A model generated the notes under the pieces. It searched no databases and was not told the DNA's origin. It saw only the letters and a program-made list of their open reading frames with translations. This document shows positions 7,981 to 48,811 of a DNA stretch of 64,000 nucleotides, piece by piece (within the stretch, counting starts at the first letter, position 1; every line of letters starts with the position of its first letter). The position numbers were made by a program, and so were the translations under genes. Source of the DNA: Candidatus Zhuqueibacterota bacterium (GTDB lineage Bacteria > Zhuqueibacterota > Zhuqueibacteria > Residuimicrobiales > Oceaniaggregativiventaceae); contig WJMF01000055.1 in assembly GCA_014728085.1 (NCBI GenBank), forward strand, positions 21,045 through 85,044. The letters are read 5' to 3'.

Positions 7981-8006
7981 TCTTCTGACTGTTGCAACCG
8001 GCCGTT

Positions 8007-19998: not shown

Positions 19999-22251
19999 TC
20001 ACTTTGCAACAAAAACGCCGACCTCTCCTTGCTTCATGTCCAGTTCCAGCGTGCGCCCCTGCTTCTGGCCGTTGACCTGAAGCATATTTTTATGCATATC
20101 CAACTGCCGCTTGCCATCAGAGGTTGCCACAAGCATAACGGCATCTTCACTGGCCCGGACAATGTCGCCCTCCGTGCTCCATAATTTGACGCCGGCTTGC
20201 CGGCACAACCAGCGCAGTACCGGCACAGGAAGCGGCGCAGTACCGACGTAAACAGAGGTATAACCGTCGAGTTGCTTGCGGACGAACGCCGGCAATGCAT
20301 TGTCAGCCCAGCGACCGAGTATTTCAACATCTTTATCCGTTACGGCAAAACGGGGAAACCGTTCTCTCGTCAGGGTCCCGAACCTCAACTCTGTATTGTC
20401 TCCTCTCCCGGGCAACTCGCATTGAATCAGCATGGGACCCGGCTCTTCAAGAATGTCAAACTGAAATCCGCTCAATCTCTGCATCGCCTTTGGATCGAGT
20501 CTCTCCGGAGAGACAAAACCGGGAGCGTAATACCAAACCACGGTTATGCCGCTATCTTTCAGCAGGTTTTGCAGCCTGTCAATTTCCGATGCATCCAGAT
20601 AGAAAAGATTAACCATAAAAAGTAATTTATATTTTTCCATATCGCCGGCATTCAGATCGAACCGGTATAGGAAATCCATTGGGGCTCCCATTCGATGAAA
20701 TGCCCGCGCCTGGGAATCACAGAACCAGTATTCAAAAAAATCCTGATACCCGGCTCCCTTTTCCCAGGGCTTTTCAGCATACCAGTGTTTGGTTACAAAA
20801 AAACTTTTGGCATCATAAACCGCAGCAACATCTGAAACGCTTGACACATCCAACCGGGCGCGTATTTCGCCCAGTTCCGTCCACTTTTTGATCTCGTTCA
20901 CAATTACCGGTGGCGCATACCATCCCTCTCCCTTAACCGCACCAATATCGCAAAGCCAACCGCCGCTACCGGTTACAAACATTTGACCCAGATCCCGCTG
21001 CAACAACATTAAAGAACCTTTTACCGTATTGCTGCCGCTACCGGCATAGTCGATATCTCGCCCTTTATCGACATATGTAGCCGGATCGAGTTCAACAAAG
21101 GGCAATTTACCGTGTCGTTTAATCGAGGTTAGTAAAAGACGATAACCGCCGTCACCGGCCAGGCCACGTCCCCTGCCCAACCAGTTTCCGGCCTGATCAT
21201 AAACATCTGTTTCACCCCTGGTCGCATCCTCCTGGTTGGAAGATTGATAGGTGTAAGGTGAAGCGATAAAATCAATATGAGGAGACTGCAGTATCGGCTT
21301 TGGCGCAAGATGTCCCCCTTCCTGAATAAAGACATTCTCAAGCAGATAATTATAAAACACGCCACAAAGCAAACGATTCCGGCTGGTGTTTTTCACGATC
21401 CCGGCATAATGACAGATCAGATCGGCGGTTAAATGATGCAGCCGTTTATAATAGTCGATAACCCGCGGCTGTTTTGATGGATCCCGAAACAATCCATAAT
21501 CACTCTGCACTCTGCTCTGCAGGTCTGGTATGTATCCCATATAGTCCTGCATTACCGGTGAAGTGTCCGGCAGAAACCAGGAATGAAAATAATGCCACTC
21601 TCCTCCCGTCGTACCGGAGCCGATATGATAGCCGATAATACGGCTTTTCAGGGGGGAGCGTTCATAGTAATCGATGAAATGCTTCAACATCCCGGTCATT
21701 TCATTTTTCCAGAATGATGACGCAAATGAGACCGATTGCGGATCATTTCTCCACCATCGCTGGCCACCCTCACCGATCAACAAGCTGTCGGTGGCGATAT
21801 TTACCACTTCGTTAAAAGGCAAGAGAGAGGTAACCAGCTCTTCCGGATGTTTTTCTTTCCACCAGTCCGGAGCATAAAGCAAGAGTCGCGGTAAAAAACA
21901 GGCTTCCGGGTGAAGTTTTAACAGCGAATCGAAAAATTTATCGAATTGTGTCCAGTCATAGCGATCCTCGGATAGCCAGCCGTCACTGATGTGAAGTATC
22001 GGATAAATAATCTCTATACCCGCCTGGCGAAACTGTGGTGTATAGTCCAGCAATCTAAAGCTCCAGGCAAAGAGGGGATAGGTTTCCTCTTCATTGATAA
22101 ACAGCCGGGGACCGCCGCGTTCTACTCGCACTGATGCCTGTACCGCAGGCTCGTCCTTTAATTTGGCGATCTCGCTCAACACACGGTTTTCATTTGCATA
22201 GGTTAGCGATGCAAGCATCAACGCCAGAATAGAAAAATATCGAAACATCAT
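19999..22251 (-). CDS. Secreted putative glycoside hydrolase (TIM-barrel, GH42/beta-galactosidase-like architecture; family not assigned)
   Basis: The 750-aa product has a signal peptide. The aromatic-rich sequence has a GH-like N-terminal region and a trimerisation-like middle domain. Assignment is from overall architecture and context only. Confidence 0.4.
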   Translation of the reverse strand: MMFRYFSILALMLASLTYANENRVLSEIAKLKDEPAVQASVRVERGGPRLFINEEETYPLFAWSFRLLDYTPQFRQAGIEIIYPILHISDGWLSEDRYDWTQFDKFFDSLLKLHPEACFLPRLLLYAPDWWKEKHPEELVTSLLPFNEVVNIATDSLLIGEGGQRWWRNDPQSVSFASSFWKNEMTGMLKHFIDYYERSPLKSRIIGYHIGSGTTGGEWHYFHSWFLPDTSPVMQDYMGYIPDLQSRVQSDYGLFRDPSKQPRVIDYYKRLHHLTADLICHYAGIVKNTSRNRLLCGVFYNYLLENVFIQEGGHLAPKPILQSPHIDFIASPYTYQSSNQEDATRGETDVYDQAGNWLGRGRGLAGDGGYRLLLTSIKRHGKLPFVELDPATYVDKGRDIDYAGSGSNTVKGSLMLLQRDLGQMFVTGSGGWLCDIGAVKGEGWYAPPVIVNEIKKWTELGEIRARLDVSSVSDVAAVYDAKSFFVTKHWYAEKPWEKGAGYQDFFEYWFCDSQARAFHRMGAPMDFLYRFDLNAGDMEKYKLLFMVNLFYLDASEIDRLQNLLKDSGITVVWYYAPGFVSPERLDPKAMQRLSGFQFDILEEPGPMLIQCELPGRGDNTELRFGTLTRERFPRFAVTDKDVEILGRWADNALPAFVRKQLDGYTSVYVGTAPLPVPVLRWLCRQAGVKLWSTEGDIVRASEDAVMLVATSDGKRQLDMHKNMLQVNGQKQGRTLELDMKQGEVGVFVAK

Positions 22252-22553
22252 CTCTTTCCCTTTTTGCTGATTTTTTATTTATAGAATTCACCCAAAAAAT
22301 AAAAAATAATTAGTCATAATATAACATAAATCAGCTTAAAAACAAATGAGTAAATATATAATATCGCCGATTTACCGATGAAAAGAGTTGCTTTACTCCG
22401 GCCCGGCGAATTCTTTAATCTATTCGAGAAAGCATTTTTATTTTCACAAAAAATTGATTACCTTTCAGATAGCGAAAATTCTGACTTTTCACCTCTGGAA
22501 ACACCGGTTACACCCCCCTGATAAGCGAAAATCCCTCATAAAAGGAGGAATAC

Positions 22554-23156
22554 ATGCCTGACATAGCAGCCAAGGATAGCAGTGCGTTGATCATTGTCGA
22601 TTTGTTAATAGACTTTTTTGATCGGGCGCTTTGGCCTCATAGCGATATTCCCCAGCAAAGAGAAAGCCTGACAAGAAATACCAACGACCTGGTATCTCTG
22701 GCGAGGGAATTTCAACTTCCCGTCCTGTGGGTTAGACAAGAGTTCGAACCGGATCTTTCGGATGCTTTTTTGCATATGCGAAGACAACATAAAAAATATA
22801 CCGTAAAAGGAACTCCCGGTGCCAACTTTTTGCCGGAATTACAAATAAACGCATCCGATCCCGTCATTACCAAGAAACGATTTTCCGCCTTTTTTAGAAC
22901 AAAGCTCGATGAGCAGCTTGCCGCACTTGGGGTCACCGAGATTATATTGGCAGGTATCACCACAACCTGGTGCATCAGAGAAACAGCTGTGGATGCATAT
23001 CAGCGCGATTTTTTGGTTACCCTGGCAAAAAGCTGTACAGCAGCATTTACCGCGGAAGATCATGACAAAAGCATCAAAGCAATGGATGGCTATATCGCCA
23101 AATGTTTTTCAATACGGCAAATCCGGAACCACCTGGAAGAAATTTCATCACATTGA
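22554..23156 (+). CDS. Isochorismatase-family cysteine hydrolase
   Basis: The catalytic triad context is present: LIIVDLLIDF (Asp), Lys, and TTWCIRETA (Cys). An AGGAGG RBS precedes the start. Confidence 0.8.
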   Translation: MPDIAAKDSSALIIVDLLIDFFDRALWPHSDIPQQRESLTRNTNDLVSLAREFQLPVLWVRQEFEPDLSDAFLHMRRQHKKYTVKGTPGANFLPELQINASDPVITKKRFSAFFRTKLDEQLAALGVTEIILAGITTTWCIRETAVDAYQRDFLVTLAKSCTAAFTAEDHDKSIKAMDGYIAKCFSIRQIRNHLEEISSH

Positions 23157-24222: not shown

Positions 24223-24984
24223 ATGAACTATAATGCCGGTTCCATCATCAAAGCATACAGCAAGCGCGCCCGGTTGGAAAATGATTCCGAAAGCGAAAGG
24301 TCGTTGCGGGTCGAAATACCCCGGCACTTTTTACATAATGCAATCAATGCCGGGGATATTGTTCTGGACGCCGGAGGCGGGGCCGGCATCAATGCCGCAT
24401 ATATGGCAAAGCAATGTAAAGCGGTTTATCTTATGGACATTACGCCCTCTATACTCAACTATGCCAATAAGAATACCAAGTCGATAGATAACATTCATCT
24501 CGTTCGTGGAAATATAGTTGATCTGATGTTTCCGAATGAATCGTTTGATTTGGCGGTGTGTCTGGGGGATCCTGTTTCCTATGTGCTTGATATGCGGTTT
24601 CAGGCTTTTGATGAACTGATTCGGGTCATAAAACCACGGGGTCATTTATTTGTCGGATGTAACTCCAAATACGGCTATATTCAGAACGAATTATCGCAAA
24701 ACAACGTTAAAGAGGCTCTGAATATTTACCGGACCGGTACAACCCGGTGCGTCATGGGGCCTGAAACACATCTCTATACGGTTCAGGAAGTGACCGACAT
24801 TCTCAAAAAACGAAATTGCAGAATTATCAGGACAGGCTCTACATCTTCTTTCACGCTCAAAGACGACAGCGTCAGTACAGATGAATGGGAAGCTTTGAAA
24901 GAAATGGAAATGACTTTATACGGTCAGCCCGAATGGCTGGGAGGCAAGCATTTATTCTTTTTGGCACAAAAAACGGAGGCATAA
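24223..24984 (+). CDS. Class I SAM-dependent methyltransferase
   Basis: The glycine-rich SAM motif VLDAGGGAG is present, with an acidic residue ending beta-2 (LMD) and motif post-I. Confidence 0.7.
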   Translation: MNYNAGSIIKAYSKRARLENDSESERSLRVEIPRHFLHNAINAGDIVLDAGGGAGINAAYMAKQCKAVYLMDITPSILNYANKNTKSIDNIHLVRGNIVDLMFPNESFDLAVCLGDPVSYVLDMRFQAFDELIRVIKPRGHLFVGCNSKYGYIQNELSQNNVKEALNIYRTGTTRCVMGPETHLYTVQEVTDILKKRNCRIIRTGSTSSFTLKDDSVSTDEWEALKEMEMTLYGQPEWLGGKHLFFLAQKTEA

Positions 24985-25031
24985 AGGTGTGAAAAGATCG
25001 CTCTCCTGCGCATTCTGACTGAATTTTCACC

Positions 25032-27509
25032 CTATGGATAACCGGTTCCGGTAGTCAGTTCAGGGTCGCCTTCCCTGGGTATCCAAATACCAATGACAAG
25101 CGTCTCATCGGAAATCTCACTTTCAAATGCCTTCAAGTTGGAGGGCAGGGGACCGGTATGCACTTTGGCCCAAACCTGGGCACGGCCATCCCGATACTGA
25201 TATTCCATCCCTCTCCACCCTTTTGACGAAAAAAATTCGGGCTCTGCCTTTGCTTTAGAGCTGCCGGCAACCATAAAAGCGGCAATTCGAATGTCCGATG
25301 AAAGGGAATCGCTACCGGCCTGCAGGTGATAATGAGGTACGATGTCTTTGTCATAGGTCTCATGCCAATAATCCGTTAATTGCCCCTCAAAGTCTGCCGG
25401 CACGCCCTGCAAATAAGGCGTATCAAAGGTATCGCTTTGAACCATCGACATGGGTATACCAAGGGAATTGAATAAACGGACCTTGAGCCAGGCGCCTCTA
25501 CGCCGGCTGAAAATTTCCTGATTGTCCGAATCAATTTCCATCGGTTCCAGGGTGTGCAACAGCCACTGAAATGTAGAGGGCTTTGGTGCATTCAGGTCGT
25601 CAAGCATAACAAAAACACCGGGACGTACAAAAACAACATGCCGGACGCATTTCTTCAGCAACCCTTTGTAGGATGCCGTGGCATCCCCGCAAGCATAAGT
25701 GGTTAGGTCCTGATGATTAAAAGCAACAATATCTCCGGTGGCGGTAAAATCCCTTATGGTCTGGCCTTTACCATTAACCAAAATGGCATTACTGGCTTTG
25801 GTCGCCCGTGTCCAGTTTGCGTGATGCGGCATGCCGTAAACCGGGCCATAATATCCCGACGCAATTGCCAGAGCACGGCCGCCAACGGAAACATGAAAGG
25901 CGTTCTGATTGGCATGACTGTGGCTGATACTGGCATAGGGACTGCTTTTAAACAACATGAATATATCATTATGCAAATCCGAAAAATCGGAATGCATCGC
26001 AACCCAACCGACATCGCTAAAGTATTTCGCTGTGGCGTTCAATTCCGGTACAGGAATATCTTCAGCCACTTGGGGCACCATCGGAATCACCGGATAATAG
26101 TAATATCTCTCCGGCAAAAGCAACTGATCCGCCCACCAGGCAGAGACCGGATCATCAAAGCGCTCCGCATGCAGATTGAGATAGGCCCACAGGGCCACTG
26201 TTCGCCTGCTGGGAACATCAAGTCCAATTTCAGCGCCATCACCAAATGGTTTTTGTTCAGCATTTGGACGCATACAGTAAGTAAAAAAATGGCGAATATT
26301 GCGAAAAAAGGGCCGTTGCCACAAGTCCACCTGCGAAACGATGCGCAGAGCTTCGATCCAGGGTGTGATAAACATGCTGTAACGGGGGCCATAGTCCATT
26401 CCCTCTGCCCAGCCGCCGTCGTAACTGCCCCAGTGCGGGTAAACGGTCATAAAAGCTTCCAGAGAATAATCGAGCCATTCCTGTACCTCTTCATCCGGGG
26501 CTTCATCGGCCAATACCAGCGCCTGTTCTCCCAAATACCCGATCAACCGGCCATCATGACTGGACCCGGGACGCTGATGAAAAGGTCTTTTAATACCCAC
26601 GCGCTCAAAGGTATCCCGCGCCCGCTGGATACAGTTTTGCCGAACAAATTCGCGCTCTTCTTCACTCAAAATGGTATAAAGCCAGTCATAAGCGCGATGT
26701 GTACAACGGGCCAAACTCAATCCGACTTCATCAAATCCACCGTGCTGACTCGAGGTGATGCCAAAAGGATCCCAGGAGGCAACCCGCAGTAAAATGCGTT
26801 TGGCGGCTGTGGCATATTTTTCGTCCTCCGTCATCAGCCAGGCCAGGCTCAACGCCTGCAAGGCTTCGTCAATAGCCGGACGGACATTGCGATAATATTC
26901 CTGATAAGCCAGACGCCGCATTGCATATTGAGTGTCGATATCATACTGATCATAGGTTGGTGGTGCAGGAGCCGGTATATCCAGATTGGCATCTGCCGTG
27001 GCCTTGAGTCGCTTCCAGGCTTGTCTGCGCGTGGTTTGCAATGTAGCCCGGAAATCGGGTAAAGATTGATCTAAAAAGATCAAACGGGGATGATTTTCCG
27101 GCAGAGTATCGATAAGATTAATGACATCCGGTTTCGGTTGTTCGATCAAGCCGGCAGGAACCGCAAGTTCATAAGGCCGCCGCGTCGCCACAACGTTGCC
27201 CTTCGAATCCAGGGCCTCTACCAACCAATGATATTCTCCAGGCTCCAGAGTTTGTGACGGCACAAACACATTATCGTTTTGTATCAACGCGTTAATAATT
27301 GTCTTTCCGCTCTCTTTGGATTTGAGTATAAAACGATAAGCATCAACCGATTCCATGGTTAGCCAGGAAAATCCGGGCGGATTGATTCGGGCGGTGTGTT
27401 GATCCGGTGGTTCCGGGAAAAGATGTACTTCTTTGCTCCGCTGCTCCGGGAACTCGAGAGCATAAACGCTCAGGAATAAAGTTAAAATCGCAATAGTCAA
27501 AAACCGCAT
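25032..27509 (-). CDS. Heparinase II/III-like polysaccharide lyase (DUF4962 N-domain plus Hepar_II_III domain), secreted
   Basis: An AGGAGG RBS precedes the ATG at 27509, which gives the signal peptide MRFLTIAILTLFLSVYA. The (alpha/alpha)-toroid plus beta-sandwich architecture is typical of heparinase II/III and alginate-lyase-like enzymes. Confidence 0.7.
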   Translation of the reverse strand: MRFLTIAILTLFLSVYALEFPEQRSKEVHLFPEPPDQHTARINPPGFSWLTMESVDAYRFILKSKESGKTIINALIQNDNVFVPSQTLEPGEYHWLVEALDSKGNVVATRRPYELAVPAGLIEQPKPDVINLIDTLPENHPRLIFLDQSLPDFRATLQTTRRQAWKRLKATADANLDIPAPAPPTYDQYDIDTQYAMRRLAYQEYYRNVRPAIDEALQALSLAWLMTEDEKYATAAKRILLRVASWDPFGITSSQHGGFDEVGLSLARCTHRAYDWLYTILSEEEREFVRQNCIQRARDTFERVGIKRPFHQRPGSSHDGRLIGYLGEQALVLADEAPDEEVQEWLDYSLEAFMTVYPHWGSYDGGWAEGMDYGPRYSMFITPWIEALRIVSQVDLWQRPFFRNIRHFFTYCMRPNAEQKPFGDGAEIGLDVPSRRTVALWAYLNLHAERFDDPVSAWWADQLLLPERYYYYPVIPMVPQVAEDIPVPELNATAKYFSDVGWVAMHSDFSDLHNDIFMLFKSSPYASISHSHANQNAFHVSVGGRALAIASGYYGPVYGMPHHANWTRATKASNAILVNGKGQTIRDFTATGDIVAFNHQDLTTYACGDATASYKGLLKKCVRHVVFVRPGVFVMLDDLNAPKPSTFQWLLHTLEPMEIDSDNQEIFSRRRGAWLKVRLFNSLGIPMSMVQSDTFDTPYLQGVPADFEGQLTDYWHETYDKDIVPHYHLQAGSDSLSSDIRIAAFMVAGSSKAKAEPEFFSSKGWRGMEYQYRDGRAQVWAKVHTGPLPSNLKAFESEISDETLVIGIWIPREGDPELTTGTGYP

Positions 27510-27544
27510 AACCCCTCCTGCTTTTACTAAATTTTTTACAATGC

Positions 27545-27561
27545 ATGTTGTCATACAACAT
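27545..27561. promoter_or_regulatory. Perfect 17-bp palindrome ATGTTGTCATACAACAT in the promoter region of the heparinase-like lyase gene (candidate operator)
   Basis: The sequence is exactly self-complementary. It sits about 40 bp upstream of the lyase start codon on the minus strand. Confidence 0.35.
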
Positions 27562-27603
27562 ACAATAATATATATCATATTTTTGTTAAAAAATCAAGTC
27601 ATT

Positions 27604-27630
27604 TATAAAAAAGGTACCAGCTGCTGTACC
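27604..27630 (-). terminator. Putative rho-independent terminator downstream of the MFS transporter gene
   Basis: The GGTACAGCAGCTGGTACC hairpin on the minus strand is followed by a TTTTTTAT tract. Confidence 0.4.
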
Positions 27631-27749
27631 GAAGCTGAGACAAAAAAGGACGAGCCTGCTCAACAGGGGAGAATCGACCCACCCGGATAAAAAAACGGTA
27701 CAGAGAAAGACGGAATCCCTGTACCGCATAACAGAACAGAATCAAATGC

Positions 27750-29267
27750 CTAGCCACCCTCGGTCAATGAAATAGGTTTATAGCCGCCTTTAGAACGGAA
27801 ATAAAGAATGAGTATCAGATAACAAAGCAGCATAATGGCGGGGAAAAGAGCCACAGTCTGCAGGGCGTTCTTTTTAGCAGAGTTGACAATGGCTTTTACT
27901 TTGCTCTGTTTTTCCGGTGGTAACGCCTCGATTTTTTTGTGATCCAGGGGTTGGTATTCTCCAAAGATGCTGACCTTGGGCGCATCGACGATACGTTGGT
28001 GCAAGGCGGGATTTTTTGTGCGCAATTCCTGATCAATCTGATTATCCTGAATATTTCCCAGGAACGCAGCGCCAACAACGCCAACAGTGAGCATACCAAA
28101 CCCGGCAATGGTATTAATAGTCAGAGCGCCGCCTTTTGGAAAGCGTTCTGCAACGATACCGAGCATGGTTGGCCAGAACAGGGACTTGCCAAATCCATAG
28201 ATGGTGGCCGCGACGAAAACCATGATACCGGCGGTTTTTGAAAGGGTTACCAGGCCGACAATAGCGATAAACGAACAAACCGCCAGGGTGCCCAGGGGCG
28301 TCAATCTGTGAACGATCGGACCGGCAGCAAAGCGAACAACCATCATGATAAAGGAGGTATAGACCAAAACCCAGCCGGCCTGCAGGCCGATATCCGTCAT
28401 GATCGGCTTTACCAAATCGGTGATCCAGCTATCGGTTCCGAGTTCGGTAGTGGCCAGCGGAATCATGATGAGCAACAGAATAACAAAAAGCGGTCTGCCC
28501 AGGGTACGGACATACAGTCCGTAACCGAGAACCAGGACAGCGGCGATAATAATTTGCAGCGTCAGGGACATTTGAAATACGCGTCCGAGTTCACGAATAA
28601 TCATGATGGTGATAATTGCGGCTCCGAGAACACCGGCTTCCTGCAACATTGCTTTATAGGAAACGCCGGCTTTAACGCGTTCATGAACAGGGAATTTGGT
28701 TCTCAGCATCATGAGGCCGTAAACAACTGCAGGAATAAAAATAAGTGCGACTTTCCAGCGCCAGTCCACCCCCGGCCCCATGACCAGGGTGATCAATCCG
28801 CCCAGGACCAATCCTCCCGGCCAGCCGGCATGCAAAATATTGAGCCATTTGGTTTTATCCCTGTGAAAGACGGTCGCGACAACCGGGTTGATCACGGCTT
28901 CGACCGCTCCGTTTCCCAGGGCGACGATAAATGTTCCGATATAGAGCATCCAGTATCCATTGGCAAAGATCGTCAAAATAGCGCTAATGATATGGCATGC
29001 AAATGCGAATATCATTGCCCTGCCGTAACCGATTTTATCGACGATAAAGCTGAAAAGGATAATGGTAATGGCAAAGGGCCACAATCCAACGCCGAGCAAT
29101 TCACCCTTTTGCGTTTCGCTGAGATTGAATTGTATCCCCCAGTCACCGATAATCTGCGTTCGAATAATAAATCCAAACGAGGTTGCGACCAGAGCGATAA
29201 AGCAAGCCCAGAATAACCATGTCGGATTTTCACCGGCAAACGCCTTTAATCCCTTTTTCTCTTCCAT
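27750..29267 (-). CDS. MFS transporter (sugar/oligosaccharide:cation symporter-like, 12 TM plus C-terminal extension)
   Basis: Twelve hydrophobic segments are visible, with an MFS-type loop between TM2 and TM3. It lies adjacent to the polysaccharide lyase. Confidence 0.8.
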   Translation of the reverse strand: MEEKKGLKAFAGENPTWLFWACFIALVATSFGFIIRTQIIGDWGIQFNLSETQKGELLGVGLWPFAITIILFSFIVDKIGYGRAMIFAFACHIISAILTIFANGYWMLYIGTFIVALGNGAVEAVINPVVATVFHRDKTKWLNILHAGWPGGLVLGGLITLVMGPGVDWRWKVALIFIPAVVYGLMMLRTKFPVHERVKAGVSYKAMLQEAGVLGAAIITIMIIRELGRVFQMSLTLQIIIAAVLVLGYGLYVRTLGRPLFVILLLIMIPLATTELGTDSWITDLVKPIMTDIGLQAGWVLVYTSFIMMVVRFAAGPIVHRLTPLGTLAVCSFIAIVGLVTLSKTAGIMVFVAATIYGFGKSLFWPTMLGIVAERFPKGGALTINTIAGFGMLTVGVVGAAFLGNIQDNQIDQELRTKNPALHQRIVDAPKVSIFGEYQPLDHKKIEALPPEKQSKVKAIVNSAKKNALQTVALFPAIMLLCYLILILYFRSKGGYKPISLTEGG

Positions 29268-29502
29268 AGGCTCCTCTCCCTATTTTAGTTGTTCATCCCG
29301 GCCGACATTATAAAAATAAAATGATAGTATTTATAATGAATAATAAAGTTTGCATCAATAATCAAGGAGAAACTGGAAAAATTTTCACTTTTTTTTGTCA
29401 GATAAAAGGAACAAGACAATAATTTCATTGTCATCCGGATAAAAACAAGAACGATACAATTCCTCACTTTATTAAAAGGCTGCATTTTGTTATATTGGTA
29501 TT

Positions 29503-31173
29503 ATGAAATTGGAAACCAAAAATAATCATCTCGATTTCTATATTATTGATGCTATCGGCCCGTTCTTTAAAAAGCAAAAGCGTACGGTAAACTGGTCGAA
29601 AATACCTTTTTTTGCCCTTGACAAGAAAGGAGAAATCAAAGCAAAAAGAATTGAAAAGATATTGAAACGGTTCCGACGTTTTGTTTCCAAATGTTCAGAG
29701 CTTGGTTATAACGCTATATCTCTGGATGACCTCGCCCATTTGGTTACTTTTGATTTTTATCCTGCCAGGCTGCAAAAGAAATTATCCATTTACAAATCCC
29801 TTTACTCCAAATTATTCGACCTGGCAATAAAAGAGGGATTATATATTTATATCAACACGGATATCATGTTTTTCAACCAGGCCATTTCAGATTACACCCG
29901 CAACAGGGAATCCAACATCATCGCATTGTTGAGTAAAGCCCTTGAACAGTTGTTTTGCAACTATCCGGTTAAAGGTGTCGTTTTTCGTATCGGAGAGAAT
30001 GACGGTATAGACGTTAAGGGAGATTTTATCAGCAGGCTATCCATAAAAACGCCCCGCCAGGCAAATCGCTATCTAAAGCAGCTGTTACCCATATTTGAAA
30101 TGCGGGATAAATTTTTAATTTTTAGAACCTGGACTGTGGGCATTCATAAAATCGGTGATTTGATGTTTAACCCCGTAACCTTTGCAAAAACATTTTCACA
30201 AATCGAGAGTGAACATCTGATCGTTTCCATGAAATACGGAGATACCGATTTTTTTGATCAACTCGACCTGAACCCTCTGATTATGAATTGTCCGCATAAA
30301 TTTATTTTGGAATTGCAAACCCGACGCGAACGTGAAGGCTTTGGTGAGCTGCCTTATTATGTCGGGTGGCAATATGAAAGGTATTTCAGGCAGTTGGCCG
30401 GGACAATCAATTTCACAGGTATCTCAGTCTGGTGCCAGACCGGAGGATGGAGCAAATGGCAAAACCTGACTTTCATTAAACGTTCATCGCCCTGGAACGA
30501 ACTGAATACGACCGCGGCCATAGAAATTTTTAAAAACGGATCCAGTGCAGATTCGGTTCTGCATGCCCTTTATAACAAACAAATAACCGACTTTATCACA
30601 TTATGTCATGAAACATTTACCAACATTATCTATATCAAGAATTTAAGCGTGATGACGCTATATCTGAGAAGACTGCGGCTGCCTCCCTTACTGTGGATTT
30701 ATTGGGATCATGTCATTATTAACCCGTTGGTTATGGCATTGTATAATTTTGTCGGCCATCAGGAGTTTTCCGTTCCCAGAGATGAGTTGAAAAAAATAAA
30801 AAAAATGGGTAAAAAATTGAACATCAGCAACATCGATTTCATATACGATACGCTGTTGATATTGGCAAAGTGCCATAGAGCAATTACACAAAAATACATC
30901 AATACAAAATTAATACACGAGATAGCAAAATATGAAAAAAAGTATCCGAACGGATTGGTATTTTCCGTAAGAACCTCACAACAAAATTTCGGATACACCA
31001 GGACGCTGTTTAAACTCTTTTTGCGAAAACAGGCAAAGTACCGTCCCCTGGATTATGTCTTGCTCTCGCCGCCGGCTTCATACCTCATTCGCTTACTGGT
31101 CAAATCACTCACCAAACACATGCCGGGTTTTGTCAACAAACAGGCCATGCCGATAGAGGAACTCTTTAAATAA
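29503..31173 (+). CDS. Hypothetical protein, 556 aa, AT-rich orphan with no recognisable family (possibly a cytoplasmic TIM-barrel glycosidase-like enzyme, judged only by context)
   Basis: This is a long uninterrupted ORF with strong K/I/N/F/Y bias and no signal peptide. Base composition is markedly more AT-rich than its neighbours. Confidence 0.6.
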   Translation: MKLETKNNHLDFYIIDAIGPFFKKQKRTVNWSKIPFFALDKKGEIKAKRIEKILKRFRRFVSKCSELGYNAISLDDLAHLVTFDFYPARLQKKLSIYKSLYSKLFDLAIKEGLYIYINTDIMFFNQAISDYTRNRESNIIALLSKALEQLFCNYPVKGVVFRIGENDGIDVKGDFISRLSIKTPRQANRYLKQLLPIFEMRDKFLIFRTWTVGIHKIGDLMFNPVTFAKTFSQIESEHLIVSMKYGDTDFFDQLDLNPLIMNCPHKFILELQTRREREGFGELPYYVGWQYERYFRQLAGTINFTGISVWCQTGGWSKWQNLTFIKRSSPWNELNTTAAIEIFKNGSSADSVLHALYNKQITDFITLCHETFTNIIYIKNLSVMTLYLRRLRLPPLLWIYWDHVIINPLVMALYNFVGHQEFSVPRDELKKIKKMGKKLNISNIDFIYDTLLILAKCHRAITQKYINTKLIHEIAKYEKKYPNGLVFSVRTSQQNFGYTRTLFKLFLRKQAKYRPLDYVLLSPPASYLIRLLVKSLTKHMPGFVNKQAMPIEELFK

Positions 31174-31399
31174 CAAAATTACCCCTGCTTTCGGTTTACT
31201 CGTTCAACACCATCAAATACCCGGATCCGTACCAAAACATTTTGATCAAACTGCAGCCTCTTCATACTCGCCCAAAACTTTATTTATTCTTCACAATAAT
31301 TTAACCGAAAATTAAAACAGAGTGGTTATGTTCCAATGAAGAGCAACGTCAAAAAAATAATCGACTTTTCGCATGAGAGAAAGAGGCTGTACACTGGAT

Positions 31400-31873
31400 A
31401 TGGTTCCGGAAAACGTTATTGGTAGAGTTGAACATATCGATAATGATGAAAGAATACAGAACCGCCTGGGAAAATTGGGATTTACCATCGGTACCCGCTT
31501 TATTATCAAGCGCAGCGGCATTGAAGGCGGTAAAATAAAGCTCACCTGCAACGATATCATGCTTACCATAAGCCGAACCGTTGCAAAGAAAATAACCATT
31601 ACAACAGAAAAAGTCTGCGAAAATATCACTCTGGATAAAGCTGAGGTTGAGGACTATGTAAGAATAGCCGCAATCGACACGGGGTGGGGTGTGACCTACC
31701 AACTAACGCAAGCCGGATGTCGAGTTGGTGATCTCATATACATTATGAAAAACAATGCAAGCGGAGGCCCCCTGGTGATCCGATATAAGGAAAATCCCAT
31801 CACCATCAGCCGCGGGGCAGCGAGAAAAATCGTCGTCGTTCCGAAAAAAAAGACAGAAAACCGGCTACAGTAA
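31400..31873 (+). CDS. Tandem FeoA-domain protein (two SH3-like FeoA repeats) with no adjacent feoB
   Basis: Each half matches the FeoA pattern: hydrophobic core, G...G turn, a C-terminal basic strand. Examples are VIGRVEHIDNDERIQNRLGKLGFTIGTRFIIKR and YVRIAAIDTGWGVTYQLTQAGCRVGDLIYIMK. I chose the internal ATG at 31400. Confidence 0.55.
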   Translation: MVPENVIGRVEHIDNDERIQNRLGKLGFTIGTRFIIKRSGIEGGKIKLTCNDIMLTISRTVAKKITITTEKVCENITLDKAEVEDYVRIAAIDTGWGVTYQLTQAGCRVGDLIYIMKNNASGGPLVIRYKENPITISRGAARKIVVVPKKKTENRLQ

Positions 31874-31895
31874 AAATAAAAGTCAAAACCGATAA

Positions 31896-32231
31896 CTATC
31901 TATCCCCGTACAATTTTTTGTTCTCCCGGTGACGTCGATCATCGCGTTTACTTTTCTTTTCAATATTTCTCTGCAAAGCACTGGTAAGATCAACCCCGGT
32001 TTGATTGGCAATACAGGTCACCACCCAGATGATATCCGCCAATTCATCTTCAAGCGTTGTGCCTTTATCAGAGGCTTTAAAGCTTTGCTCGCCATACGTC
32101 CGGGACATGATTCGGGCAAGCTCTCCAACTTCTTCGACCAGCTGTGCCAGATTGGTCAATTCCGAAAAATATCTCACACCAACGGTTTGAATCCATTTAT
32201 CGACATCTCTTTGATATTCTTTAATCGTCAT
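31896..32231 (-). CDS. MazG-like nucleotide pyrophosphohydrolase (YpjD family)
   Basis: It aligns closely to B. subtilis YpjD (EVDKWI...YFSPL...LTEEVGELAR...YGE...EELADIIWVVTCLAN). Confidence 0.8.
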   Translation of the reverse strand: MTIKEYQRDVDKWIQTVGVRYFSELTNLAQLVEEVGELARIMSRTYGEQSFKASDKGTTLEDELADIIWVVTCIANQTGVDLTSALQRNIEKKSKRDDRRHRENKKLYGDR

Positions 32232-32244
32232 GTATCGCCAACCC

Positions 32245-32952
32245 TTACGTTAGGATAAAATATTCACGTTTCAAGCGATCAAATGTATTTTCCGGAAATA
32301 AGCCCGGCAGTCTTGTTCCGACGGCCACAATAGAAATACCAATGACCTTTTCGCTTAGGCCGAACCCTTTCGCGAGGGAGACCGCTCCTGACACCAATAG
32401 TTCCGCCCCCAGCATCAGAAACACCAGGCCGGCCAAAATCAACCCGGCATCCATCCACGCGCTTTGAAGCCGTTTAATCTCTTCAAATGACGAATCGGAT
32501 TTGGTTTTCCGGCTTTGGCGAATATTATAAAAAATATAAATCACCAGCAAAACAACCAAAACAAAACCTTCCAACCGTCCCAGGGTTTGATTCCACAAAA
32601 ACAGGGAAGCCAATACGGTAACGACTATAAGGATGGGAACCTGCACCTGGACAACGCGCAAATGGATACGCAGCGGTTGAACCACGGCTGCAAGTCCCAA
32701 TATAAGACCGATATTGCCTAGATTTGACCCGAGTACATTACCCACCGTTATTTCACTGCTCTGAATCCAGGCAGCTTTTAGACTCACAACGAGTTCAGGA
32801 CTGCTGGTGCCAAAAGCGACAATGGTCAATCCGATAATGAGAGGACTTGTGCCAAGACGGGCAGCCGCAGATGAACTGCCGCGCACCAAACCCAGAGCGC
32901 CAGCGAAAAGACAAAAAAGGCCTGTAATAAGAGATCGTATTGGAAGAATCAT
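32245..32952 (-). pseudogene. Truncated Ca2+/cation antiporter (CaCA/YrbG family), 3' end missing
   Basis: The first alpha-repeat GTSSPELVVS is intact. The second repeat begins AVGTRLPGLF and then diverges into non-homologous sequence, stopping about 100 aa short of the normal ~320 aa. Confidence 0.55.
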
Positions 32953-32998
32953 TATTCTATACTTACAATATGGATTCCGATGATCGAATGATGCGTTG

Positions 32999-33334
32999 CT
33001 AGTTCTTTTTAGATATTAAAAAATTAAATAACCGGGTTTCCTGCCGCAATTGCGGAATATCACTCTCAGCGACAACGCCGACGTTCTCGATTGTATAAAA
33101 GGCTTTGGGATTGTATTTCTTAACCACATTGATAAACGACGATATACTTTTTCGCTTAACAATAGCGTAAAGCCAGATCAAAATTTCAAAAAACCCAAAC
33201 AGAGCGGCAAGGTATTTCATGTTTCGGGATATGAAAATAATCCGAATCGTGCCGATGCTTACATCGATGACCCTGGCTGCAAAGATCAAAATGGGCAATA
33301 AAAAACCGCTGGTGGCAATGACGTGTAAATCCAT
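32999..33334 (-). CDS. UPF0316/DUF2179-like membrane protein, N-terminal part only
   Basis: LIFAARVIDVSIGTIRIIFISRNMKYLAALFGFFEILIWLYAI resembles B. subtilis YebE. At ~111 aa from the MDLH start it is shorter than the typical ~170 aa. Confidence 0.45.
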   Translation of the reverse strand: MDLHVIATSGFLLPILIFAARVIDVSIGTIRIIFISRNMKYLAALFGFFEILIWLYAIVKRKSISSFINVVKKYNPKAFYTIENVGVVAESDIPQLRQETRLFNFLISKKN

Positions 33335-33335
33335 G

Positions 33336-33944
33336 TTAGTATCCCAATTCTCCATGCAATTCGTTTGAAAACCTATTAAAGGGAGGGCTCTCCAGTGAAC
33401 AAGCCTCCGGATTTGAATCCGATCCAAAGTGCTGATAAAACAATAATTGATGGTGAAAATCATCCGAATTACCCCCATTGGAACAACGAATCATGCTGAG
33501 GATATACTCGCTGACGCTATCAACACCATCAAACTGCACCGATACCGGTATGTCTCGATCGAGCAAATCGGACGGCATCACCAGGTCATTGACCCGCGAT
33601 TCCGGAATACGGGTTACGTCCGAGGCCACCTGCAGTTCATAGGTAACCAGAGAACCGGGTGCATGCAATGTACACGGCGGCATAAAAAATCCGGTACCGG
33701 GAATGAGCTGATAAGCAGGGGATAATTCGGTCAAACGATTATCCCCCTTAAAGTAATGCTGCAAATATTCGAGTATTTTCTCATCATCGATTCCGGCATG
33801 TATCTTCCCACCCCGGGTATTGTAATAACACAATCCCGTTTGAGACTGCATAAACAACAGCCGATTGAATAGTTGCCTTGCATAAGCAACTGACATAGAA
33901 TTCCGCATCAAAAGCGGATAAAAACGCTTCATCCAAGTCATCAA
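33336..33944 (-). pseudogene. Cupin fragment resembling the C-terminal half of type I mannose-6-phosphate isomerase, with the N-terminal zinc-binding half absent
   Basis: LIPGTGFFMPPCTLHAPGSLVTYELQVASDVTRIP follows the PMI pattern L..GEA.FL.A..PHAY..G...E.MA.SDNV.R. There is no QxH zinc motif and no room upstream for the missing half. Confidence 0.3.
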
Positions 33945-34026
33945 TATATATTGATGACATTACGGCGATAGGCCCGCTTGTACCATCCCGGAGCCATTGT
34001 AATTCTCAATATGAGTGAGAATTATA

Positions 34027-34566
34027 TCACGTATTTACAATACCCAATCGATAAGGACCCTCAACAGCAAGGGCCTCGTATCCTTTTTCTTCACCGACGA
34101 TCAGCAGCGGCTTTTTCGGATGTTCATTAAGCCAGGCAGCTTTAACTTCACCAACAAAGACAGTGTGATCGCCGCTATCCACCTGACCGTAAAGCTTGCA
34201 TTCAAAGCTGGCAATGCATTTCTCAATCAGAGGCGCTTTAACGAATGATCCCGGTTTTTTGCTGAATCCGCAAAGTTCAAAGCGGTCCTGATCGTTGCTG
34301 GAAGGCATACCACAGTCAAGTGCCTCTTTTGCCAGATCTGCACCGGGCACGGCAACGACAAACTCGCCGGTTGCAGAGATGTTCTGATGTGTTGTCCGGT
34401 TTTTACCCACTGCAATCGCCAACATCGGCGGCTTGAACGAGGCGCGCATTTTCCAGCCTGCTGTCATGACAAAAGGATTGCCTTCCTCATCACAGCTGGT
34501 GACCAAAACGATTCGTTCGGGCTTACTCCAATATTGCATCGCCTCTTTAAAAGAGACCTGTTTCAT
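34027..34566 (-). CDS. Flavin reductase-like FMN-binding split-barrel protein
   Basis: The product is Flavin_Reduct-like (VLVTSCDEEGNPFVMTAGW, VAVP). A strong AAGGAGG RBS lies 6 nt before the ATG at 34566. Confidence 0.75.
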   Translation of the reverse strand: MKQVSFKEAMQYWSKPERIVLVTSCDEEGNPFVMTAGWKMRASFKPPMLAIAVGKNRTTHQNISATGEFVVAVPGADLAKEALDCGMPSSNDQDRFELCGFSKKPGSFVKAPLIEKCIASFECKLYGQVDSGDHTVFVGEVKAAWLNEHPKKPLLIVGEEKGYEALAVEGPYRLGIVNT

Positions 34567-34697
34567 ATTAACCTCCTTGATGTACATTAAATTATCAAAA
34601 TTTTTTAATTTTGCAAATTATTTATTATTGCTATATTAACAGAAAAAAAAGGCAAAACATTTCCACCGTAAGCGGCTATTTGGTTCAAACGGAACAG

Positions 34698-36134
34698 ATG
34701 ATGAACGACACCTCACTTTTCCATTTTTTACAATCCATTTATGAAACCGGACTGATGCAGCAACGCAATCGCTACTCTGATTTAATTAAACAGAGCCGGC
34801 GCATTCCTGATGGCGACCGCTATATCGTGCGGGCGCCGGGAAGGGTCAATCTTATCGGTGAACACACCGATTACAATGGATACCCGGTTCTGCCCATGGC
34901 CATAAACCGAGATATCGTTTTAGTAGGCGTAAAACGCTCAGACCGTGTGATTACCGTTCATAACAGCGACGATCGTTTTCCCACCGTTACCTTCTCTCTT
35001 GAAAAACCGCTCAAAGCCGACAGAGCCGGAACATGGAGCAACTATGTGAAAGCGGCCATCAATGAACTGATAAAAAATATGCCGGCGGCCACAGGATTTA
35101 CGGCATGGACCGATGGCACCATTCCACCTGCTGCCGGTTTGTCGTCTTCCTCTGCCCTGGTGGTTGGCGCGGCCCTTATGTTTATGAAAATAAATGCTAT
35201 TCAAATCGAGGATATGGACCTGGCCGAGAGACTGGCAAAAGCTGAACATTTTGTCGGTACAGCCGGTGGCGGCATGGACCAGGCGATTTCACTCATGGCA
35301 CAAAAAAATCACGCCCTGAAACTGGATTTTTTTCCCCTGCGCTATAAAACTGTTTCCGTACCGACGGATTACAGGGTTGTTATCTGTCATTCCCTTCTGG
35401 ATGCCCCTAAAACAGAGCAGGCCAGACGGGAATACAACCGCCGGCCGGTTGAATGCAGGTTGGCAACCGCATTGATCGCCGCGGAACTCTGCAGAGCCGG
35501 CTTTTCTCCCAACAATCCGCAACGGCTGGCGGATGTTGACAACGACCACTTGCCTCTGGATAAAAAACAATATCAAAAAATAGTCGGGCAGGCGCTTTTA
35601 CCGGCTTCTCTGGATTGGAAAACTCTGAGCCGGCGCCTCTCCCTTTCAAAAGAAGAAATTGCGACAAAGTGGTCGATACCGGATGAATGGATCGATCAGC
35701 CGCCGGCAGGAGGCTTTAAATGCTGGAAACGCTATCATCATGTCATCAATGAAGCCCGGCGCGTGAACAAGGCCAGCAGGGCGTTGGCTGAAGGAGATAC
35801 TGAAAGCTTTGGCCTTCTAATGTACGGTTCGCACCAGAGTTGCCGGCGAAAATTCGAAATCAGCACCCCTGAACTCAATGCCCTGGTTGACATTGCATGG
35901 AAAAATGGTGCAATCGGAGCCCGGCTGACCGGAGCCGGATTCGGAGGATGTACGGTTCATCTCGTACGGCGCTCCATAAAGGAAAAATTTATGACTCGTC
36001 TTCTCGATGACTATTTTGCAGGCTATTTGCGAAAAAACCGGCCTGATCTGCTGGAAAAACATCCGAATTTTCATAATGCCGTGTTTACCACACAGGCTAT
36101 GGCCGGTGCCGGCTGTCTGAAAAGTACTGATTGA
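34698..36134 (+). CDS. Galactokinase-family GHMP kinase (long GALK2/N-acetylgalactosamine-kinase-like form)
   Basis: The galactokinase signature GRVNLIGEHTDYNGYPVLPMAI and the GHMP ATP motif PPAAGLSSSSALVV are present. I chose the start MMNDTS at 34698. Confidence 0.85.
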   Translation: MMNDTSLFHFLQSIYETGLMQQRNRYSDLIKQSRRIPDGDRYIVRAPGRVNLIGEHTDYNGYPVLPMAINRDIVLVGVKRSDRVITVHNSDDRFPTVTFSLEKPLKADRAGTWSNYVKAAINELIKNMPAATGFTAWTDGTIPPAAGLSSSSALVVGAALMFMKINAIQIEDMDLAERLAKAEHFVGTAGGGMDQAISLMAQKNHALKLDFFPLRYKTVSVPTDYRVVICHSLLDAPKTEQARREYNRRPVECRLATALIAAELCRAGFSPNNPQRLADVDNDHLPLDKKQYQKIVGQALLPASLDWKTLSRRLSLSKEEIATKWSIPDEWIDQPPAGGFKCWKRYHHVINEARRVNKASRALAEGDTESFGLLMYGSHQSCRRKFEISTPELNALVDIAWKNGAIGARLTGAGFGGCTVHLVRRSIKEKFMTRLLDDYFAGYLRKNRPDLLEKHPNFHNAVFTTQAMAGAGCLKSTD

Positions 36135-47669: not shown

Positions 47670-48811
47670 TGAACAACTCCATCTCTATTTGATTGATAAA
47701 TTATACGCTCTATTATCTCCAAAGCCATTTCGGCTGACCGATTCCAGTCAAATTTTATGGCCCACTCCAGGGCGTGCCGGCTCATTCGCTGCAGCAACAG
47801 GGGGTGCTTGCAGAGCCGAATGATGCTTTCGGAAAGACTTTCAATATCAGCATACGGATATAAAAATCCGGTTTTATGATTTACCACCGAATCTCTCAAG
47901 CCGGGAGAATCAGCAGCAATTACGGGGGTGCCGCAGGCATTGGCTTCGATGACCGTCAGACCCCATCCCTCTTTGGGAGAGGTGTTCACCGCACACCACA
48001 TTTTCCCGAGCCAGTCGACTTTGTCCTCGTGACTGACATGACCGGTAAATATAACCCGGGAATCGATCTGCAGTTCTCTTGTCAGTTTTTCCAGGTTTTG
48101 CCGGTCATCTCCTCCACCGAGCACGACAAATTCAGCATCCGGCATGGCAGTTATTATTCCTGGAATTGCCAGTAAAAAATGCTCCACGCTTTTGTACCTT
48201 TTCAGGCGTCCGAAATAGCCGATAAGCGGCTTTTTTTGCCGCTTGCCGGCCGGAAAACGGTTCGTGTCGACAGCATTGGGTAACCAATGAATGGAACCCT
48301 TTATGCCGTTTTGCCGCAATTCATTGATCGTACTTTGTGATACCGCCGCAAAGGATGTGTGCCGGTATGCCAGCGGGATCAGCTTTTCCGAAAAATAAAC
48401 ATAAGATGCTGATACCGGATTGGTTTCCAGATATATACTTTTGTCAAAGAGATGGTGCACCAGGGCACAGACAGGTTCTTTTACATAACAAGGCGTGTAA
48501 AAAGGTATTTTGTTGATATCATCGATAACGATATCAACACCCTGCCGGCGTAATTGCCGATAGGCAAAGGGAACATAATAATTAAAAAGAGCTCTGTTGC
48601 CATAGCGCCGAACATCTATAGAATCTATGCGCTCGCTTTTCGAAGCACCGGGATAATGGCAACAGGCCAGCGTTACAGAATGTCCCTGCATTGCCAGCCG
48701 TTTAAAAATTTCATGAAAATGAACCTCTGCTCCACCGCTCTGCGGATGGGTGATATCCTGCCAGTTGAAGGCGAGGATGTGATATTTCCTCGTCGGCCTT
48801 TTGTGTTTCAT
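47666..48811 (-). CDS. GT4 family glycosyltransferase
   Basis: The retaining GT-B E-x7-E motif EGWGLTVIEANACGTPVIA is present. The gene is translationally coupled to its neighbours. Confidence 0.8.
   Translation of the reverse strand: MKHKRPTRKYHILAFNWQDITHPQSGGAEVHFHEIFKRLAMQGHSVTLACCHYPGASKSERIDSIDVRRYGNRALFNYYVPFAYRQLRRQGVDIVIDDINKIPFYTPCYVKEPVCALVHHLFDKSIYLETNPVSASYVYFSEKLIPLAYRHTSFAAVSQSTINELRQNGIKGSIHWLPNAVDTNRFPAGKRQKKPLIGYFGRLKRYKSVEHFLLAIPGIITAMPDAEFVVLGGGDDRQNLEKLTRELQIDSRVIFTGHVSHEDKVDWLGKMWCAVNTSPKEGWGLTVIEANACGTPVIAADSPGLRDSVVNHKTGFLYPYADIESLSESIIRLCKHPLLLQRMSRHALEWAIKFDWNRSAEMALEIIERIIYQSNRDGVVQ

Follow-up and report, generated by a model that had tools for sequence, protein, structure and literature searches.

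The question raised by this locus is whether a gene that lies in the most AT-rich part of its surroundings, and that matches no Pfam family, is a foreign arrival or an inherited enzyme, and, if the latter, what that enzyme might do. The gene occupies positions 29503..31173 on the plus strand of a 64,000-nucleotide stretch of DNA (from contig WJMF01000055.1 of a Candidatus Zhuqueibacterota bacterium; this whole stretch is the window in what follows) and, as an earlier inspection of the letters alone had stated, encodes a protein of 556 amino acids in a single uninterrupted open reading frame (ORF). That inspection, hereafter the sequence-only reading, regarded the block 29268-31173 as horizontally acquired DNA coding for an orphan of no recognisable family. 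What emerges from the present analysis is that the gene very probably encodes an enzyme of the glycoside hydrolase family 67 (GH67) superfamily, predicted to be cytoplasmic, which has come down by vertical inheritance.

With regard to the protein's family, searches against Pfam return no match at E ≤ 1, and those against NCBIfam nothing usable. A large protein collection nevertheless contains at least 1,780 sequences that are homologous to the window protein (E ≤ 1e-3). Among them a 100%-identical protein from a candidate division KSB1 bacterium carries the NCBI name ‘glycosyl hydrolase family 67’, as do several other homologues. (The NCBI model of this identical protein begins at a TTG two codons later, hence a length of 554 amino acids.) On these sequence comparisons the gene is not an ORFan, and the description of it as an orphan does not hold. 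Indeed, relatives occur in at least 528 species genomes of bacteria and archaea, one genome having been scanned per species; these include Leptospira, Kiritimatiellia/Verrucomicrobiota, Fibrobacterota, Victivallales, Spirochaetota, Desulfuromonadales, SAR324 and Acidobacteriota, together with Saccharibacteria, Peribacteria, Dependentiae, Woesearchaeota and Nanoarchaeota, such that the reduced genomes of the candidate phyla radiation (CPR) and of DPANN archaea are represented. When 1.84 billion representatives were searched exhaustively with a profile, the family came out as 778 clusters at 50% identity, of which 295 have E ≤ 1e-30. The family alignment of 36 sequences contains 43 invariant columns at a mean column identity of 48%, and around it lies a second tier of longer relatives (730-1047 amino acids; P0220-P0275), which share the same catalytic core, carry long C-terminal extensions and have little or no Pfam annotation. 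Matches to lectins, obtained when the single window protein was searched against PDB sequences, were rejected as spurious.

The predicted fold gives an indication of the protein's nature. From the 36-sequence alignment AlphaFold2 produced a confident model (predicted local distance difference test score 87.8, predicted template-modelling score 0.88), which has an N-terminal (β/α)8 barrel, spanning approximately residues 10-320, followed by a helical C-terminal domain of approximately residues 325-556; in other words, the predicted model possesses both the barrel and the helical C-terminal domain that characterise GH67. When this model was compared with the PDB using Foldseek, a comparison that the sequence-only reading had put forward in connection with its claim of no family, the top match was the Cellvibrio GH67 α-glucuronidase 1gql (E 9e-12, template-modelling score 0.50, 10% identity), with GH20 hexosaminidases, GH138, GH84 O-GlcNAcases and GH89 following at E values of 1e-8 to 1e-6. 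What the window protein lacks is the N-terminal β-sandwich of GH67, since its first residue lies only some 10 positions before barrel strand 1; there is no match to Glyco_hydro_67N, and it is only the longer relatives that have this domain.

Sequence profiles lead in the same direction, albeit by way of the relatives. The window protein itself does not reach the Glyco_hydro_67M gathering threshold, and weak matches to this model are found in 11 of the 36 family members (best E 9e-6), while the longer relative P0223 scores 19.8 bits against a threshold of 23.5. The long relative P0250, on the other hand, lies above the Pfam gathering thresholds for both GH67C (35.5 against 27 bits) and GH67N (24.6 against 24.3 bits), and matches AguA of G. 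stearothermophilus in the PDB at E 8.5e-6. The P0220-P0275 tier therewith appears, at the level of sequence, to bridge the family to canonical GH67. Direct comparisons of the family profile are weaker, in that a search of PDB sequences grazed GH67 at E 1.3, and hhalign gave E 1.6e-4 in a local alignment whose targets were GH67 fragments of about 100 amino acids.

Three stretches of the protein are candidates for its active site. The first is the loop after strand β-4, R162-I-G-E165-N-D167-G-I-D170 (29986..30012, plus strand), identified in the family alignments. The second, S242-M-K244-Y-G-D-T-D249-F (30226..30252, plus strand), aligns to the GH67 motif Q-I-K-N-G-P-x-D-F, and the third, E270-L-Q272-T-R-R275-E276 (30310..30330, plus strand), aligns to the GH67 motif E-x-Q-I-T-Q-E. 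In P0250 the stretch ‘sTKYcksDFF...iELQarrEfeGF’ pairs with ‘qIKNgpmD364F...mE386vQitqE392y’ of AguA, its counterpart in the window protein being ‘SMKYGDTDF...ELQTRRE’. Since one and the same register is obtained from HMMER (family profile against GlcA67A), from hhalign and from the P0250-AguA alignment, K244, D249, E270, Q272 and E276 are equated with AguA K359, D364, E386, Q388 and E392, respectively; by the same alignments D249 and E276 correspond to D365 and E393 of GlcA67A. Once the family alignment is extended to the long relatives, the residues that stay invariant are R162, E165, R208, W210, S242, K244, D249, E270, Q272, R275 and E276, along with E278, W310, Y377 and W401, whereas the invariance of R508 and R514 is confined to the short family.

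With these equivalences in place, D249, E276 and K244 would provide the base pair and the nearby lysine of a GH67 enzyme, on the basis of residue roles reportedly proposed by Nurizzo (2002), Golan (2004) and Shallom (2004). The GH67 lysine that aligns to K244 is the one which we take to contact the uronate carboxylate, and the GH67 general acid is presumably the residue on a mobile loop numbered E285 in AguA and E292 in GlcA67A. As a candidate for this last role in the window protein we would put forward E165, which is the sole acidic residue of the β-4 loop to stay invariant in both tiers and which lies roughly at the expected distance before D249, in a position that falls outside every GH67 alignment and superposition. 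The protein would then most likely be an inverting α-glycosidase, in which D249 and E276 would activate water by analogy with the presumed roles of AguA D364 and E392, E165 would protonate the leaving group, and K244, R162, R208 and R275 would hold an anionic group of the substrate, be it a uronate carboxylate or a phosphate.

As to its location, the protein has neither a signal peptide, as had already been seen, nor a transmembrane segment (maximum 19-residue Kyte-Doolittle mean 1.29), from which a soluble, cytoplasmic protein is predicted. Taken with the modelled GH67-superfamily fold and the invariant residues aligned to the GH67 base, this suggests that the earlier idea of a novel cytoplasmic glycosidase was right in kind.

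The protein would resemble a GH67 enzyme most closely in its working, and yet it does not follow that it should be filed under GH67. It shares with the solved members of that family (AguA, 1k9d/1mqq; Cellvibrio japonicus GlcA67A, 1gqi/1gql) the TIM barrel and helical C-terminal domain that make them its best structural match, the K-x-G-x-x-D-F and E-x-Q-x-x-x-E motifs in one consistent register and, through its longer relatives, the GH67N and GH67C Pfam signatures. It differs from them in an identity of about 10% with no Pfam GH67 match of its own, in being some 140 residues shorter (556 amino acids against 679-708 in the solved chains) and lacking the β-sandwich, and in its genomic surroundings, where the recurrent neighbour is a glycosyltransferase fusion rather than xylanases and there is no xylan-utilisation context; indeed, the neighbours that were inspected include no genes for the degradation of xylan. 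Because the N-terminal domain is absent, the GH67M thresholds are not reached, the acid is unconfirmed and the context is different, the protein is most aptly placed in a divergent clade of the GH67 superfamily that is truncated and cytoplasmic, and the NCBI label is reasonable for the superfamily while overstating what is known of function. The second-tier structural matches, GH20 and GH84, the α-N-acetylglucosaminidase family GH89 and the α-galacturonidase family GH138, have the same barrel and helical-bundle architecture; they show no sequence signal, however, and the conserved motifs of the window family map to GH67. The adjacent D-E or D-D catalytic pairs, which we take to be typical of GH20 and GH84, are absent from the window protein. 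No experimental study of this GH67-like family was found in the literature; it is a sizeable family, which keeps GH67-type motifs and differs from GH67 in architecture, location and gene context, and its cultured carriers include Malonomonas rubra DSM 5091 and saprophytic Leptospira.

The AT-richness that first drew attention to the locus is real. The block 29268-31173 has a guanine-plus-cytosine (GC) content of 0.381, against 0.465 for the whole window, and is the lowest-GC 1.9-kb block within the 64 kb, some 3.6 standard deviations under the mean, with only 0.3% of blocks of that size being as low. Likewise, the GC content of the gene is an outlier (z = −4.5) among the 46 long ORFs of the window. 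The deficit resides in the first and second codon positions (z = −3.8 and −2.2, respectively), whereas GC at third positions (GC3) is 0.463 against 0.506 ± 0.032 (z = −1.4), which is within the normal range. When the GC content to be expected of the gene was computed from its amino-acid sequence and the codon usage of the other 45 long window genes, the amino acids alone gave 0.414 (z = −3.3; other genes 0.476 ± 0.019), as compared with an observed value of 0.395, the residual being −0.019 (z = −1.4). Approximately three-quarters of the dip is thus accounted for by the composition of the protein, in which F, Y, M, I, N and K together make up 38.3% of the residues (neighbours 28.1 ± 3.0%; family average 36.2%). 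In other words, the AT-richness is mainly a by-product of an F/Y/I/N/K-rich protein, and of the two kinds of anomaly that profiling might have exposed, it is the raw GC content that is atypical and not the codon usage. The family as a whole behaves in similar fashion, since across 73 related loci the GC content of the gene follows that of its host from 0.21 to 0.66, and in 74% of the 73 other loci the gene lies below its flanks, by 1.8 points on average.

The remainder of the block is the 235 bp between the gene and its upstream neighbour, a major facilitator superfamily (MFS) transporter gene that is transcribed divergently from it (27750..29267, minus strand, with its first base at 29267). 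This stretch (29268..29502; GC 0.294) is as AT-rich as had been claimed, though it is not a leader: it is the intergenic, presumably promoter-bearing region between two divergent genes, for which such a composition is ordinary, and it can be aligned, with conserved blocks, to the orthologous intergenic region of a sister contig. No Rfam family was found in it, and in a promoter and terminator scan promoter-like sites were no commoner there than in shuffled sequence.

That sister contig, a metagenomic one (L086), provides the decisive evidence against a recent island. It carries an orthologue that is 67% identical to the window protein, in the order MFS, GH67-like gene, FeoA, MazG, DUF5698/DUF2179, a 438-amino-acid gene, flavin reductase and galactokinase, which is the order of the window, and the identities between the two are 93% for the MFS transporter, 56% for FeoA, 75% for MazG, 85% for the flavin reductase and 53% for the galactokinase. 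It also shows the same dip in GC, the gene standing at 0.404 (GC3 0.493) in a contig of 0.454. A further contig, L087, has an orthologue in the same order too, such that the comparison with sister genomes, which the sequence-only reading had proposed, finds the gene in its place in both. From the synteny, the shared dip and the orthologous intergenic DNA, it is concluded that the gene and its AT-rich upstream region predate the split of the window and L086 genomes; the gene is ancestral in the KSB1 lineage, and an ancient transfer is possible.

The contrary case, that this is recently acquired foreign DNA with an accessory or defence gene inside an AT-rich genomic island, can point to the lowest-GC block of the window, to a dip of −7.3 points that is the extreme among the 73 family loci, and to decayed genes close by. 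Against this stand the normal codon-level composition (GC3 and the codon-usage residual each at z = −1.4), an orthologue at the same position in L086 amid neighbouring proteins that are 53-93% identical, and a gene GC content that tracks that of the host from genome to genome. Moreover, none of the customary marks of an island is present at the flanks: a tRNA scan of the 64-kb window found none, a boundary-repeat search around the gene gave only short repeats at chance level, and no mobility gene was identified among the ORFs scanned at 24223-36131. As for defence, which the sequence-only reading had raised as an option, the window protein matches no PADLOC family at E ≤ 1. The recent-island reading is hence largely refuted, along with the earlier claim of horizontal acquisition, and has by now very little credibility indeed. 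The more general point is that horizontal transfer should not be read out of a raw dip in GC content until GC3 and synteny have been consulted.

If the gene is taken as an inherited member of the GH67 superfamily, its function must be sought in the company that it keeps. The context sample consisted of the 80 loci that most resemble the query; in 78 of them genes were called, naively as the longest ORFs, and clustered. In 32 of these 78 loci a fusion protein of about 810 amino acids, combining a PHP-phosphoesterase-like domain with a glycosyltransferase of family 4 (GT4), is encoded within approximately 10 kb of the GH67-like gene, and in 25 within 3 kb; examples are L050:255-3017, L054:6470-8905 and L089:8001-10400, to which 29 other loci are to be added. 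The fusion gene often abuts or overlaps the GH67-like gene, on either side of it or in divergent orientation, and the pairing spans roughly ten or more lineages of phylum rank. The association is recurrent and resistant to rearrangement. The fusion constitutes a widespread family of its own, with at least 1,627 homologues. Its N-terminal part of about 400 residues contains the invariant pattern D-x-H-x-H...H...E...H...H...D-D-H, which resembles that of PHP phosphoesterases, and gives weak matches to Pfam PHP and NCBIfam CehA/McbA, while the source records annotate it as PHP or metal-dependent phosphoesterase; a profile of this domain found nothing when searched by sequence against the PDB. The C-terminal half is a GT4 glycosyltransferase (Glyco_transf_4 and Glycos_transf_1) whose best scores are with GpgS (GlcNAc-phosphatidylglycerol synthase), BshA, MshA and Coryne-type GlgA, all of them far below the curated cut-offs. 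Of the four partner GT4 domains that were scanned, two have GpgS as their highest-scoring named NCBIfam model and the others have it close to the top, with scores well under the GpgS cut-off (132 against 480 bits). Pfam ‘GT4-conflict’ matches, which might have suggested a conflict system, were set aside, as they underlie much stronger generic GT4 matches. No published characterisation of PHP-GT4 fusions was found in the literature.

Other neighbours are rarer, and two additional contexts of the fusion, taken from large genomes, yielded nothing informative. Two KSB1 genomes, in which the fusion is encoded away from the GH67-like gene, have it directly 3' of a GT4 gene and an LPG_synthase_TM gene; one of these two has in addition an upstream PAP2 gene and, on the opposite strand, an Acyltransf_2/PlsC/Acetyltransf_5 gene. 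Near the GH67-like gene itself, an LPG_synthase_TM flippase gene occurs in 2 of the 78 loci, a diacylglycerol-kinase-like gene in four (immediately 3' in three), a GlgC-like gene in four, the polyphosphate gene ppk1 in seven (PPK1 at 840 bits against a cut-off of 466) and a Ppx/GppA gene in six, the polyphosphate genes often being directly upstream; in Pontiella loci a gene for a PhoB-like regulator (226-230 bits, under the 296-bit cut-off) is directly upstream. A Pfam scan of the 94 nearest flanking ORFs disclosed no further recurrent family. In detail, ppx-ppk1 or ppk1 alone adjoins the GH67-like gene at L029, L033, L058, L046, L030, L051 and L076, from Victivallales, Brevinema, Ilyobacter, Planctomycetaceae and Spirochaetales, and at L046 ppk1 overlaps its start.

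Since GT4 enzymes make α-glycosides and GH67-type enzymes cleave them, a synthase with its matching hydrolase is the simplest reading of the recurrent pair. GT4 enzymes are retaining and form α-glycosides from UDP-α-sugars (PMC8231724). The substrate of the window protein would then probably not be an imported polysaccharide and would more likely be an endogenous α-linked glycoside produced by the retaining, PHP-fused GT4; that the protein turns over such a product is a proposal for and against which the balance appears to us about even. Its most plausible substrates would be the headgroup of a membrane glycolipid or a small glycoside, the protein acting as the turnover arm of the pair, possibly in connection with the phosphate economy of the cell. 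Between these, the lipid is slightly favoured in view of the flippase, PAP2, acyltransferase, diacylglycerol-kinase, PPK1, Ppx and PhoB-like neighbours, although the specific suggestion that the product is a membrane glycolipid is offered tentatively and with more doubt than confidence.

Known systems supply some of the logic for such an arrangement. One of them is PlcP/Agt (GTcp), a module of lipid remodelling in response to phosphorus stress, whose products are α-Glc-, α-Gal- or α-GlcA-diacylglycerol (PMC8231724, PMC4796936). It combines a metal-dependent phosphoesterase with a retaining GT4, much as a PHP-like domain is fused here to a GT4, and PPK1, Ppx or PhoB-like genes are near the family gene at some loci; unlike the PHP partner, however, PlcP is a calcineurin-type metallophosphoesterase, and PlcP and Agt are encoded as a two-gene operon with no fusion. 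No dedicated hydrolase was found described for PlcP/Agt, and the likeness is one of analogy only. By this analogy the fused phosphoesterase might act on a phospholipid to supply the acceptor, which is the part that PlcP plays for Agt/GTcp. Alternatively, it might dephosphorylate a glycoside-phosphate product in the manner of sucrose-phosphate synthase/phosphatase, which is a GT4-phosphatase fusion whose product is degraded by a separate hydrolase, the logic of the α-linkage being the same; the phosphatase in that case is a HAD enzyme, unlike the PHP partner. A third comparison is offered by gpgSDF of P. aeruginosa and hexSDF of C. difficile, which glycosylate lipid headgroups by means of a cytoplasmic GT4 and a flippase of UPF0104/COG0392 (PMC12713373). 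The KSB1 gene order, with the PHP/GT4 gene directly after genes for a GT4 and LPG_synthase_TM, is similar, whereas there is no deacetylase, GpgS scores far under its cut-off, and the flippase is found in only 2 of the 78 loci. It should be added that this comparison takes the UPF0104/COG0392 flippase to be of the LPG_synthase_TM family, which is our assumption.

Drawn together, these considerations raise the prospect that the GH67-like family and the PHP/GT4 fusion are the two halves of a cytoplasmic cycle, not described before and spread over roughly ten or more lineages of phylum rank, whereby the fusion would build an α-linked, probably anionic glycoside or membrane-glycolipid headgroup and the GH67-like enzyme would remove it again. 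Such a cycle would be a fused functional analogue of the phosphorus-sparing lipid remodelling of PlcP-Agt, to which a dedicated ‘reverse’ hydrolase has been added, and the clade would then merit a glycoside hydrolase family of its own; as a complete scheme, the new family included, this is a speculative and on the whole rather doubtful prospect. Were the coupling of the PHP/GT4 fusion to the GH67-like gene functional, it would point to an unrecognised pathway of endogenous glycoside or glycolipid turnover.

Several observations weigh against assigning the window protein to the turnover of a glycoside made by the fusion. The 64-kb window contains no PHP/GT4 fusion, its only GT4 being a generic one of 381 amino acids at 47666-48811, 17 kb away; the closest relatives of the window protein are mostly without a fusion nearby; 46 of the 78 loci have none within 10 kb, and the fusion is itself often a stand-alone gene. 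The lipid- and phosphate-related neighbours are minority contexts. On the side of mechanism, the alignments with GH67 do not extend to the putative general acid, and the roles of AguA D364 and E392 as the proposed general-base pair of an inverting family are presumed here. In addition, the partner GT4 is nearest to GlcNAc-transferring enzymes, such that GlcNAc, in place of a uronic acid, might be the sugar; by that same sequence likeness an α-HexNAc substrate is conceivable. Lastly, no biochemical data were found in the literature for any member of the family.

One alternative follows from the immediate surroundings of the gene, in which the MFS gene is paired with a gene for a DUF4962/heparinase II-III lyase (25032-27578, minus strand). 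On this account the protein would be an intracellular α-glucuronidase-type glycosidase that finishes uronate oligosaccharides which the lyase makes and the MFS transporter imports, with a shared promoter to co-regulate them. Some true GH67 enzymes are intracellular (PMC4153629), and a cytoplasmic location would suit imported oligosaccharides; moreover, the gene adjoins and diverges from the MFS-lyase pair, the adjacency to the MFS gene is kept in L086 (this contig ends on the MFS side, which places any lyase adjacency outside its span), GH67 acts on uronic acids and the lysine that aligns to the carboxylate-binding one is conserved. Elsewhere the association is absent: when the window neighbours were searched by tblastn against the fetched loci, neither the lyase nor a related MFS transporter was found save for the MFS of L086, and a Pfam scan of flanking ORFs likewise found no lyase and no related MFS, which leaves little of the earlier suggestion that the gene completes a glycosaminoglycan catabolic set. 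That the family reaches into Leptospira, CPR bacteria and DPANN archaea, with a homologue placed within a dcw cluster, is similarly hard to reconcile with such a role. Furthermore, the unsaturated uronates that lyases produce normally go to GH88 and GH105 rather than to GH67-type enzymes. This catabolic role, though plausible at the local scale in view of the divergent arrangement with the MFS gene that L086 shares, is judged unlikely.

The other alternative is that the GH67-like fold serves no hydrolase at all, and that the protein is a glycoside phosphorylase, a transglycosylase, or a protein that regulates or that binds sugar phosphates or polyphosphate. The invariance of R162, R208 and R275 in both tiers, and of R508 and R514 in the short family, would be in keeping with this, as would the adjacency of PPK1/Ppx in seven loci and the fact that the general acid is not established. 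The carboxylates aligned to the GH67 base and the glutamate of the β-4 loop are nevertheless retained across about 800 clusters, as one would expect if an inverting hydrolase had stayed active; phosphorylases that descend from such hydrolases typically have residues for phosphate binding in place of the base (compare GH130, PMC4599007). A protein without hydrolase activity is accordingly regarded as quite improbable.

A separate context is met in Leptospirales metagenome-assembled genomes (MAGs), where the homologue is found inside the dcw cluster, between murC and ftsQ, in the usual place of murB and ddl (L005/L022, a Leptonemataceae MAG, 8001-9752), and a Mur-ligase neighbour is probably present in L073 too. 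A peptidoglycan role for the family, which this position might suggest, was rejected, the arrangement having been seen in Leptospirales loci only.

Downstream of the GH67-like gene, the scan of surrounding ORFs agrees with the earlier naming of the neighbours, here as for the lyase and the MFS transporter. A tandem-FeoA gene lies at 31373..31873 on the plus strand, with no FeoB gene among the nearby ORFs scanned, and a MazG gene at 31896-32231 on the minus strand. Beyond MazG are apparent gene remnants, and comparison with L086, which is syntenic here, shows the region 32245-33944 to be decayed: between MazG and DUF2179 sits a truncated Na/Ca-exchanger gene (32245-32952) that L086 does not have; the window copy of DUF5698/DUF2179 (33002-33334) is frame-broken, its residues 67-143 having gone; and of the 438-amino-acid gene (33360-33803) residues 178-294 and 410-438 remain. 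This decay could be either real pseudogenisation or an artefact of MAG assembly. As to the other dips in GC content in the window, the second lowest (~21850-22750, GC ~0.38-0.41) takes in the 5' part of a 750-amino-acid ORF (19999-22251, minus strand) with no Pfam or NCBIfam match, and the third lowest (~55850-56200, ~0.41) covers the 5' end and upstream region of a valyl-tRNA synthetase gene (53306-56029, minus strand). Finally, in keeping with an FCB-group/KSB1 origin of the window, several large secreted proteins, including one in the window (8007-10508, minus strand) and others in L088 and L092, bear Por_Secre_tail sorting domains of type IX secretion.

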